Shown: piece after piece, positions 6,089 to 17,312 of the stretch
How positions within the stretch are numbered: position 1 is the stretch's first letter
How the letters are laid out: the number at the start of each line of letters is the position of its first letter
Assembly (NCBI GenBank): GCA_037310415.1
Contig: CP147780.1
Span: forward strand, 662,402 to 694,401
Source of the DNA: Candidatus Atabeyarchaeum deiterrae
GTDB taxonomy: Archaea > Asgardarchaeota > Atabeyarchaeia > Atabeyarchaeales > Atabeyarchaeaceae
Length of the DNA: 32,000 bases
Direction of reading: 5' to 3'
Program-made: the position numbers and the translations under genes
The notes under the pieces: generated by a model
What the model was told of the DNA's origin: nothing
Seen by the model: only the letters and a program-made list of their open reading frames with translations
Databases searched by the model: none

Positions 6089-6203
6089 GCTCCGGTAGTA
6101 TAGTCCGGTCAAGTATAGCGGCCTCTCGAGCCCAGATAGGGAAAGCCGCGGACCCGGGTTCGAATCTTTCTATCTTGAGGTGAAAATCCCGGCCGGAGCA
6201 CCA
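6089..6203 (+). tRNA. tRNA-Glu(CUC) with two introns and an encoded CCA
   Basis: The acceptor is GCTCCGG/CCGGAGC and the D arm is GTAT/GTAT. The anticodon arm is GCGGC-CTCTCGA-GCCGC, with the anticodon at 6125-6127. This arm only forms after removing 15 nt at 6129-6143, which is compatible with the canonical 37/38 position. The T arm CCGGG-TTCGAAT-CCCGG only forms after removing 22 nt at about 6166-6187. The mature length is 75 nt plus CCA. Confidence 0.85.
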
Positions 6204-6465: not shown

Positions 6466-6584
6466 TCTGGCTTCGCCGCAGACTAGTGTCTGCAGTGATA
6501 TTTAAAGCCCAAGTTCACGGCGAGCCAGATCTTGTTTGACACCGTAAAACATTTATCTGCTCCGTCTTTGTTATCTAAAGACCT

Positions 6585-6741
6585 GCGGCCGTGGTCTAGA
6601 CAGTGCCTTCCAAAAACGAATAACCTAGAATGGTCTAGGACAGAGGAAACGAGACAGTTTCCATCCAAAGGCCTCCCAAGTCTCTAACCCAGATTCTCTA
6701 TTCTTGGGGAGGAAACCCGGGTTCAAATCCCGGCGGCCGCA
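6585..6741 (+). tRNA. tRNA-Gly(CCC) with three inferred introns and no encoded CCA
   Basis: The acceptor is GCGGCCG/CGGCCGC with discriminator A. The T arm CCGGG-TTCAAAT-CCCGG is intact. A cloverleaf requires three removals. The first is about 6601-6629 (29 nt, D-loop). The second is about 6647-6671 (25 nt, within the 5' strand of the anticodon stem). The third is about 6685-6711 (27 nt, at the junction of the anticodon stem 3' strand and the variable loop). The result is D arm GTCT/GGAC and anticodon arm GAGGC-CTCCCAA-GTCTC, with the anticodon at 6675-6677. The length bookkeeping is exact: 157 = 76 + 81. Confidence 0.7.
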
Positions 6742-6816
6742 CTCACATTCGGCATTGTTTCCTATCCTTTCAGTGCAAAAGGTTATTAAGCCATCAGCAA
6801 TTAGTGGAAATCAACG

Positions 6817-11401: not shown

Positions 11402-11751
11402 GGGTTATGAACCCCGACTCTCGACATCCTTTACGCTCACCAGTACCCTTCTCTAGGGAATCCACCCCGTGAATCCGAAAGCGCACCCGGTCAAACTTAC
11501 GACTGCTGCCTCCCGGCTCTCGTCGGATTTGTCTACAACGGTCTTCTCCATCTCCCCTACAGGAGATGTTCGACCACCAGATGCCCTCCGGGGCGAGGCT
11601 TCATGTCCCTCGGAAAAGGCTGTATGAACGCTTGGAATGCCTCAAGCCGGCATTCGGCCCGCCGTATAGGGCGTTTGCGGTACAGGGGAGTTCTAGCCTA
11701 TGGCTGGGGATCAGTCTAGGTCCCTAGCCCCCCGCCTAGGCTCATAACCCC
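11402..11751 (-). ncRNA. Signal recognition particle RNA (archaeal 7S RNA); ends are approximate
   Basis: On the minus strand the 5' end GGGTTATGA pairs with the 3' end TCATAACCC. GCCTAGGCGGGGGGCTAGGG and CTCCCCTGTACCGCAAACGCC resemble the archaeal Alu-domain 5' region. CGAC-GAGA-GCC-GGGA-GGC-AGCA-GTCG forms the helix 8 motif, with a GNRA loop and an AGCA symmetric loop. Confidence 0.85.
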
Positions 11752-11853: not shown

Positions 11854-11995
11854 GCCGGGGTGTCCTAGAGAGACGAATTCGACCAGTCTCAGGGAACCTG
11901 GTAGGGAGCAGACAAAACCACTCTTGGTAATGGCTCATGCCTGCTAAGTCTGTGCCCGAAAGGGCGCGTGGGTTCAAATCCCACCCCCGGCGCCA
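11854..11995 (+). tRNA. tRNA-Ser(GCU), class II, with two introns and an encoded CCA
   Basis: The acceptor is GCCGGGG/CCCCGGC with discriminator G, followed by CCA. The T arm is GTGGG-TTCAAAT-CCCAC and the long variable arm is TGCCCGAAAGGGCGC. D arm TCCT/GGGA and D-loop AGCCTGGTA form only after removing 11869-11896 (28 nt). The anticodon arm CAGAC-CTGCTAA-GTCTG, with the anticodon at 11943-11945, forms only after removing 11914-11940 (27 nt, between positions 31 and 32). The bookkeeping is 139 = 84 + 55. Confidence 0.8.
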
Positions 11996-16891: not shown

Positions 16892-17056
16892 TGGGCGAGG
16901 CCGGATTTGAACCGGCGACCTCAGGTTGCTATCGATCCATTGCGAGCAATCTCCTGCTCCCACTCTGCGGCAACATCCCATATGATGCATGTTGCTTAGG
17001 CAGGAATCATGGCCAGCCTAGGGATTCTCTTGAACTCCTATCTAGACTACCCGCCC
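16892..17056 (-). tRNA. tRNA-Pro(UGG) with three inferred introns and no encoded CCA
   Basis: On the minus strand the acceptor is GGGCGGG/CTCGCCC with discriminator A, and the T arm is GCCGG-TTCAAAT-CCGGC. The perfect anticodon stem CCTGC/GCAGG encloses 42 nt. The only 7-nt loop with U33 and a purine at position 37 is CT+TGGGA, which needs a 35-nt intron between positions 33 and 34; the anticodon is at 16960-16962. A 24-nt D-loop intron follows GTCTAG. A 31-nt intron sits between the anticodon stem and AGGTC of the variable loop. The bookkeeping is 165 = 75 + 90. Confidence 0.7.
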
Positions 17057-17219: not shown

Positions 17220-17312
17220 GCCGCCGTAGCTCAGTCGGTCAGAGCGCCAGCCTTGTAATGCACCAGACATGACAGTTGGTGGTCGCGAGTTCGACTCTCG
17301 CCGGCGGCTCCA
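17220..17312 (+). tRNA. tRNA-Thr(UGU) with one canonical 37/38 intron and an encoded CCA
   Basis: The acceptor is GCCGCCG/CGGCGGC with discriminator T, followed by CCA. The D arm is GCTC-AGTCGGTCA-GAGC. The anticodon stem is CCAGC/GTTGG and the loop is CTTGTA|A. A 16-nt intron occupies 17258-17273. The T arm is GCGAG-TTCGACT-CTCGC. Confidence 0.9.

Follow-up and report, generated by a model that had tools for sequence, protein, structure and literature searches.

The window, i.e. the whole stretch of 32,000 nucleotides analysed here, carries on its forward strand a gene for a tRNA-Gly(CCC) that is interrupted by three inserts (Table 1). Its position corresponds to 668986-669142 of the genome and is thereby identical with that of tRNA #19, Gly CCC, in the published Atabeyarchaeota_2 table. 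Gene for gene, the tRNA coordinates given for 'SRVP_Atabeyarchaeota_2' (Valentin-Alvarado et al. 2024, PMC11291895, Supplementary Data 4) match the present contig, a single one of 2,756,679 bp of which the window covers 662402-694401. The genome is the complete one published for Atabeyarchaeia-2, an Asgard archaeon from a wetland. For tRNA #19 this table reports a single intron called by tRNAscan-SE, 669088-669115 (window 6687-6714), a total of "2 observed" introns and an Infernal score of 42.6 bits with the single intron removed (PMC11291895). A preliminary description, made from the letters of the DNA, had already proposed that the 157 nt from 6585 to 6741 hold a tRNA in four pieces and had assigned it to Gly(CCC). 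The sequence is as described there, and outline and assignment both hold. The spliced 76-mer proposed at that time could be rebuilt letter for letter from the blocks given, and ARAGORN calls this 76-mer as well as the revised 75-mer presented below tRNA-Gly(CCC).

Table 1. Features of the tRNA-Gly(CCC) locus and further RNA genes of the window; exon and intron borders are those predicted by the revised model.
Feature	Position in window	Strand	Length (nt)	Remarks
tRNA-Glu(CTC) gene	6089-6203	+		Published table, 2 introns; distance to the downstream Gly gene about 380 nt
Possible archaeal BRE/TATA-like promoter element	6546-6559	+		AAAACATTTATCTG; suggested by its sequence
tRNA-Gly(CCC) gene	6585-6741	+	157	4 exons and 3 predicted introns; ARAGORN on the spliced product, coordinate match to the published table
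Exon 1	6585-6601	+	17	Acceptor 5' strand, nt 8-9, D-stem 5' strand, D-loop A14-C17
Intron 1	6602-6630	+	29	D-loop, after nt 17
Exon 2	6631-6643	+	13	Remaining D-loop (UGGUCUA), D-stem 3' strand GGAC, A26, G27
Intron 2	6644-6668	+	25	Anticodon-stem 5' strand, between 27 and 28
Exon 3	6669-6686	+	18	Positions 28-31, loop CUCCCAA (anticodon CCC at 6675-6677), 3' strand GUCUC, U44, A45
Intron 3	6687-6714	+	28	Variable loop, 45/46; equals the published tRNAscan-SE intron 669088-669115
Exon 4	6715-6741	+	27	A46, C48, T-arm CCGGG-UUCAAAU-CCCGG, acceptor 3' strand, discriminator A
Archaeal SRP RNA	11405-11747	-		Rfam RF01857, 131 bits; adjoins the tRNA-Ser(GCT) gene
tRNA-Ser(GCT) gene	11854-11995	+		Published table, 2 introns
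tRNA-Pro(TGG) gene	16892-17056	-		Published table, 2 introns
tRNA-Thr(TGT) gene	17220-17312	+		Published table, 1 intron; the only one of the four further tRNA genes found by Rfam at the gathering threshold

According to the published tRNA table and to our check of the tRNAs of the genome, this is the sole tRNA-Gly(CCC) gene present. An intron-free second gene for this tRNA, brought up in the preliminary description as a possible counter-argument, was found nowhere in the genome. All four exons lie collinear within the 157 nt, an arrangement different from that of a split or permuted (trans-spliced) tRNA. DNA contigs from two separate studies contain the three-insert form without any difference, and an intron-less joint was found in none of them, although such contigs cannot reveal rare variants. 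The identity of the contigs in both studies argues against an assembly artefact and is silent on expression. The one run labelled as metatranscriptome provided no contig on the locus, which says nothing about expression either.

A CCA end is not encoded, as the gene is directly followed by CTCACA (CTC at 6742-6744). For comparison we used two genomes of the same family, referred to as G001 and G002. The orthologue of G001 shows CTT after the discriminator and likewise no CCA; in G002 the CCA follows the discriminator immediately, and many other tRNA genes of the present genome encode it. The order of the Glu and Gly genes is the same in Atabeya-1.

Joined at the revised junctions, the four exons would yield a mature tRNA of 75 nt with the D-loop AGACUGG and a 4-nt variable loop UAAC. 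The cloverleaf of this 75-mer is canonical and evaluates at about -30 to -31 kcal/mol; its anticodon loop comprises 7 nt, G18-G19 and the T-loop are present, and all invariant tRNA features are intact. ARAGORN calls the 75-mer tRNA-Gly(CCC) in all three genomes, i.e. in this one, G001 and G002. Compared with the generally known identity elements of tRNA-Gly, the body of the molecule is Gly-like: the acceptor stem starts with G1-C72, C2-G71 and G3-C70, the discriminator is A73, U33 and a purine at 37 are present in the anticodon loop, and the variable loop comprises 4 nt.

The junctions were predicted by means of the bulge-helix-bulge (BHB) rule. In this geometry the central helix joins two blocks of 4 nt, each of which stops 2 nt short of a cut, one at the 5' and the other at the 3' junction; the cuts divide the two 3-nt bulges between their second and third nucleotides. 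The motif includes at least one outer helix and can take the form hBHBh', HBh' or hBH. Applied to the canonical intron of tRNA-Arg(CCG) of this genome, the rule reproduced the intron as published. A first strict scan, which demanded 4/4 central pairs, detected the first and the third intron but not intron 2; the latter was located by hand via the orthologues and then scored. Within 175 nt the same strict scan also returned dozens of weak motifs attributable to chance, and a BHB-like match by itself is thus not evidence. Among random junction pairs of the genome, motifs of equal quality occur at a frequency of 0.26% for intron 1, 0.05% for intron 2 and 0.013% for intron 3.

At intron 1, the central helix is formed by CTAG (6596-6599) and CTAG (6625-6628) with 4/4 pairs, flanked by the bulges AC↓A and AA↓T (the arrow marks the predicted cut) and an inner helix GT/AC of 2 bp. 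The end of exon 1 follows from the BHB rule and is in line with the paralogue tRNA-Gly(UCC), which reads GGTCTAGAC directly followed by TGG, and with the orthologue, whose intron starts after the same nt 17. At intron 2, GGAC of the D-stem 3' strand (6638-6641) faces ATCC (6663-6666) with 3/4 pairs, one of them being replaced by a C.A mismatch in this genome; the bulges are AG↓A and AA↓A. The inner helix of 6 bp is the GGAAAC/GTTTCC hairpin already noticed in the preliminary description, which is real and located at 6645-6650/6657-6662. The best BHB motif of the locus belongs to intron 3, where TCTC (6681-6684) and GAGG (6709-6712) form a central helix with 4/4 pairs between the bulges TA↓A and AA↓A, and CCCAG (6688-6692) and TTGGG (6704-6708) an inner helix of 5 bp. 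In all three motifs the outer exon-exon helix comprises only 0-1 bp, which makes them relaxed HBh' forms. As inferred previously from the sequence, the splicing would thus be of the BHB type, with a motif at each of the revised junctions.

The comparison with the related genomes is independent of the motif search. G001 and G002 contain inserts at the same three sites. The earlier count of three introns is borne out; in the present gene the inserts measure 29, 25 and 27-28 nt. Between the three genomes the exons are 93-96% identical, the introns about 60-76% over aligned columns. Exchanges within the exons preserve the pairing of the stems (G30:U40 to G:C, G27:C43 to G:U, G53:C61 to G:U). In intron 1, G001 and G002 retain the central helix and the places of both bulges; the second inner pair, T-A in this genome, is C-G in G001. 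For intron 2, both relatives possess a central helix GGAC/GTCC with 4/4 pairs. In intron 3, the orthologues show exchanges on one side of the inner helix that leave its pairing intact; it reads CCCAGG/CCTGGG in G001 and CCCGG/CTGGG in G002. With the revised cuts, the variable loop is UAAC in all three genomes.

A check that does not depend on any motif is provided by the tRNA-Gly(UCC) gene of the same genome (369330-369192, minus strand). It shows no interruption over mature nt 1-50, is about 89% identical to the body of the Gly(CCC) tRNA, shares its UAAC variable loop, and reads AGACTGG, GAGGCC across 27/28 and TCTAAC, i.e. exactly the revised joints. Finally, the three tRNAscan-SE introns published for the Atabeyarchaeia-1 orthologue, 674168-674205, 674219-674243 and 674262-674289 (Infernal score 81.5 bits; PMC11291895 Supplementary Data 4), fall precisely at the homologous junctions. 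Since 674219-674243 is the counterpart of intron 2, the claim of an intron within the 5' strand of the anticodon stem, made in the preliminary description, agrees with a published call in a relative.

The predicted junctions are thus supported by four lines, namely the BHB motifs, the orthologues, tRNA-Gly(UCC) and the published calls for the orthologue. Judged by the presence of the same inserts at the same places in two relatives and by a motif quality reached by 0.01-0.3% of random pairs, the three-insert structure is not due to chance. We consider it highly probable (about 0.88) that positions 6585-6741 hold the one functional gene for tRNA-Gly(CCC), interrupted by three BHB-type introns (6602-6630, 6644-6668 and 6687-6714), and that its transcript would be spliced to a tRNA of 75 nt.

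Alternatively, only two of the inserts might be removed and the third retained as an enlarged D-loop or as an insertion in the anticodon stem. The published table, with its one tRNAscan-SE intron and two observed in total (PMC11291895 Supplementary Data 4), as well as the mismatch in the central helix of intron 2, would fit such an arrangement. But BHB-type motifs are found at all three inserts, the Atabeya-1 orthologue is published with three introns at homologous sites, and a class I tRNA could not function with an additional 25 nt in its anticodon stem or 29 nt in its D-loop, which makes this alternative very unlikely.

We regard it as equally improbable that the locus is a decaying pseudogene, untranscribed or incompletely spliced, with GGG being read by tRNA-Gly(UCC). 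Points in favour of decay are the low Infernal score published for the form with one intron removed and the missing CCA, in which the gene differs from many tRNA genes of the genome. Against decay speak the conservation across three genomes (93-96% in the exons, about 60-76% in the introns), stems that stay paired, a full set of invariant tRNA features and the fact that this is the only CCC isoacceptor. Moreover, a promoter-like element is present at the same spacing in G002. Upstream of the present gene, AAAACATTTATCTG is possibly an archaeal BRE/TATA-like promoter element, from which transcription might be directed; the octamer CATTTATC ends 27 nt upstream of the tRNA 5' end. The element AAAACATTTAT is situated at an equal distance in G002 and is not evident in G001. 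Nevertheless, tRNA-Gly(UCC) could read GGG by wobble, and the Gly(CCC) gene is not provably essential.

Slightly less probable still are the exact junctions of the preliminary description, which would result in a 76-nt tRNA with the D-loop AGAAUGG and a variable loop GAAAC of 5 nt, intron 3 being recognized via a helix between exon and intron, CTTGGGGAGG/CCTCCCAAG. ARAGORN accepts this 76-mer as tRNA-Gly(CCC), and the complementarity of 9-10 nt is present in this genome. Yet the BHB check of these junctions revealed only 1, 0 and 2 of 4 central pairs, and the published tRNAscan-SE calls disagree with them. Furthermore, tRNA-Gly(UCC) aligns better to the revised product (124 versus 115 for the 76-mer, which has a mismatch at nt 17 and a gap in the variable loop), and the variable loop would vary among the orthologues (GAAAC or GAGAC). 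In both orthologues the CTTGGGGAGG/CCTCCCAAG helix is broken by an A.C at the A38 pair, whereas the BHB helices are kept. As a recognition element this pairing was rejected, since its bulges are not at usable cuts and it is broken in both orthologues. The complementarity arises because the exon sequence GAGGCCTC is palindromic, so that GAGG of the intron is able to pair with CCTC or with TCTC.

The three borders had to be shifted to different extents. Intron 1, given earlier as 6601-6629, is off by one (6602-6630), which makes nt 17 of the D-loop a C instead of an A. Intron 3 had been placed at 6685-6711, right after position 43, and is moved by 2-3 nt to 6687-6714 at 45/46, whereby the 5-nt variable loop is replaced by the 4-nt UAAC and the tRNA becomes 75 instead of 76 nt long. 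For intron 2, previously 6647-6671, the product remains identical, as an AGG repeat at both intron ends lets cuts after 6643-6646 yield the same tRNA; the cut itself is predicted at 27/28 (6644-6668) rather than at 30/31. Altogether, the predicted junctions differ from the earlier ones by only 1-3 nt, and not grossly; RNA-seq junctions with gross differences had been named as speaking against the three-intron model.

The weakest reading, a tRNA-Lys(CUU) interrupted by one intron of 89 nt as reported by ARAGORN -i for 6585-6742, has a negligible probability and was rejected on structure and orthologue comparison, as its product would comprise only 69 nt with a G.U-rich D-stem of 3 bp and no G18-G19, its anticodon stem consists of intron sequence not conserved in the orthologues, and a tRNA-Lys(CUU) gene is listed at another position of the genome.

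Standard tools perform poorly at this locus. ARAGORN with default settings detected no tRNA in the whole 32,000-nt window, and a full-window Rfam scan at the gathering threshold detected none at 6585-6741; it found only one tRNA (17220-17309) and the archaeal SRP RNA. A scan with relaxed E-value returned a 21-nt fragment of the T-arm at 6713-6733 with 13.9 bits. That two of the three introns were missed by tRNAscan-SE is probably explained by the weak outer helices together with the C.A mismatch of intron 2. The intron mode of ARAGORN mislabels several tRNAs of the genome, e.g. Arg(CCG) as Trp(CCA), Arg(TCG) as SeC and Ile(TAT) as Gln. Applied to the Arg(CCG) gene (genome 243848-243938), the BHB rule leads to the anticodon as published.

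If the three-intron model is correct, splicing could proceed as follows. At each intron, 4 exon nucleotides close before the 5' cut would pair with 4 intron nucleotides close before the 3' cut, the scissile bonds would lie in the two bulges of 3 nt, and a helix within the intron would close the motif (HBh' type). As the three motifs use non-overlapping nucleotides, all of them can form at once in the structure model, and no obligatory order of removal results. In two of the three central helices, the exon strand is one that belongs to a native stem of the tRNA: GGAC, the 3' strand of the D-stem, pairs with (A/G)TCC of intron 2, and UCUC of the anticodon-stem 3' strand with GAGG of intron 3. 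Accordingly the model allows the cloverleaf to form only after splicing. A two-subunit splicing endonuclease would cut at the six predicted sites and RtcB would presumably join the four exons, giving the 75-nt tRNA with its 4-nt variable loop, to which CCA would be added afterwards.

The genome contains proteins suited for these steps, two with PF01974/PF02778 (EndA) and one with PF01139 (RtcB). The EndA protein of 238 amino acids (L021:1474-2190:-) carries both Pfam domains; its closest counterparts are catalytic subunits from Crenarchaea, namely 3p1z_B, 3ajv_B and 2zyz_B (E = 1.9e-46 to 3p1z_B). Its alignment extends through the stretch YGQP..KP...F..P, which we take to be the Crenarchaea-specific loop linked to a broad substrate range; a corresponding role in the present enzyme is suggested by the alignment. 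In the paralogue of 198 amino acids (genome about 625319-625915, L022:1192-1788:+), Tyr and Lys are kept and a Thr is aligned to the His of the M. jannaschii enzyme (1a79). This His is presumably a catalytic residue and member of the triad in that enzyme. The exchange suggests that the 198-aa protein is a non-catalytic, structural beta subunit. A catalytic-type EndA accompanied by a paralogue lacking this His resembles the heterotetrameric enzymes of Aeropyrum pernix and Pyrobaculum aerophilum (3p1z, 3ajv, 2zyz).

When the precursor is folded without constraints, the BHBs are absent from its minimum free energy structure (-55.5 kcal/mol, z = -3.1). The model with three BHBs amounts to -40.8 kcal/mol, or -49.2 kcal/mol when extended under constraint, and is thus 6-15 kcal/mol less stable. 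Thermodynamic folding alone would therefore not have found the motifs.

Genes of this kind are known. [quoted passage not shown] That study covers this very genome and gene, and its Atabeya-1 orthologue has three introns at the sites found here; the difference lies in its table, which lists one tRNAscan-SE intron and two observed for the present gene, compared to three supported in our study. A preprint of 2026 (10.64898/2026.10.13.758758) presents a cross-genome census of tRNA introns and argues for an independent accumulation in Asgard. From Crenarchaeota/Thermoproteales, tRNA genes with as many as three BHB or HBh' introns each have been known since 2007-2008 (Sugahara et al. 2007, 2008; review by Yoshihisa 2014, PMC4090602). 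According to the same review, an alpha2-beta2 EndA is linked to non-canonical and multiple introns, and the positions 45/46, D-arm and anticodon stem are known (PMC4090602). The present gene is similar to the crenarchaeal three-intron genes in its three BHB/HBh' introns, their non-canonical positions and the use of 45/46; it differs in the phylum, Asgard, and in position 27/28, which is not among the example positions named in PMC4090602.

The gene is hence an ordinary member of an oddity of which both the kind and the genome are already in print. The only addition is a corrected model of the gene, with three predicted introns versus two in the 2024 table, exact junctions and a 75-nt product. 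This model covers the only tRNA-Gly(CCC) of the reference complete Asgard genome. It also provides a worked example of standard tools failing, which applies to ARAGORN, Rfam and tRNAscan-SE (1/3 introns), and the gene would offer a compact substrate for studying the permissiveness of the Asgard splicing endonuclease, since three different relaxed motifs are combined in one 157-nt transcript.

As a wider interpretation, to which we would give somewhat less than even odds, the published annotation may undercount the introns (2 vs 3), the 27/28 intron may be spliced despite its C.A mismatch and the lack of an outer exon helix, and the Asgard EndA may tolerate weaker motifs than the characterised crenarchaeal enzymes, while the introns might block the folding of the tRNA until all of them are removed.

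The other glycine tRNA genes of the genome differ in their interruptions. tRNA-Gly(UCC) carries no insert in the D-loop and is interrupted only in the T-arm. In tRNA-Gly(GCC) (genome 369636-369465, minus strand) an insert in the D-loop seems to be located at the position of intron 1; it reads GGTCCAGTC↓...CTGGAA↓TGGTC, with a central helix CCAG/CTGG recognizable by eye.
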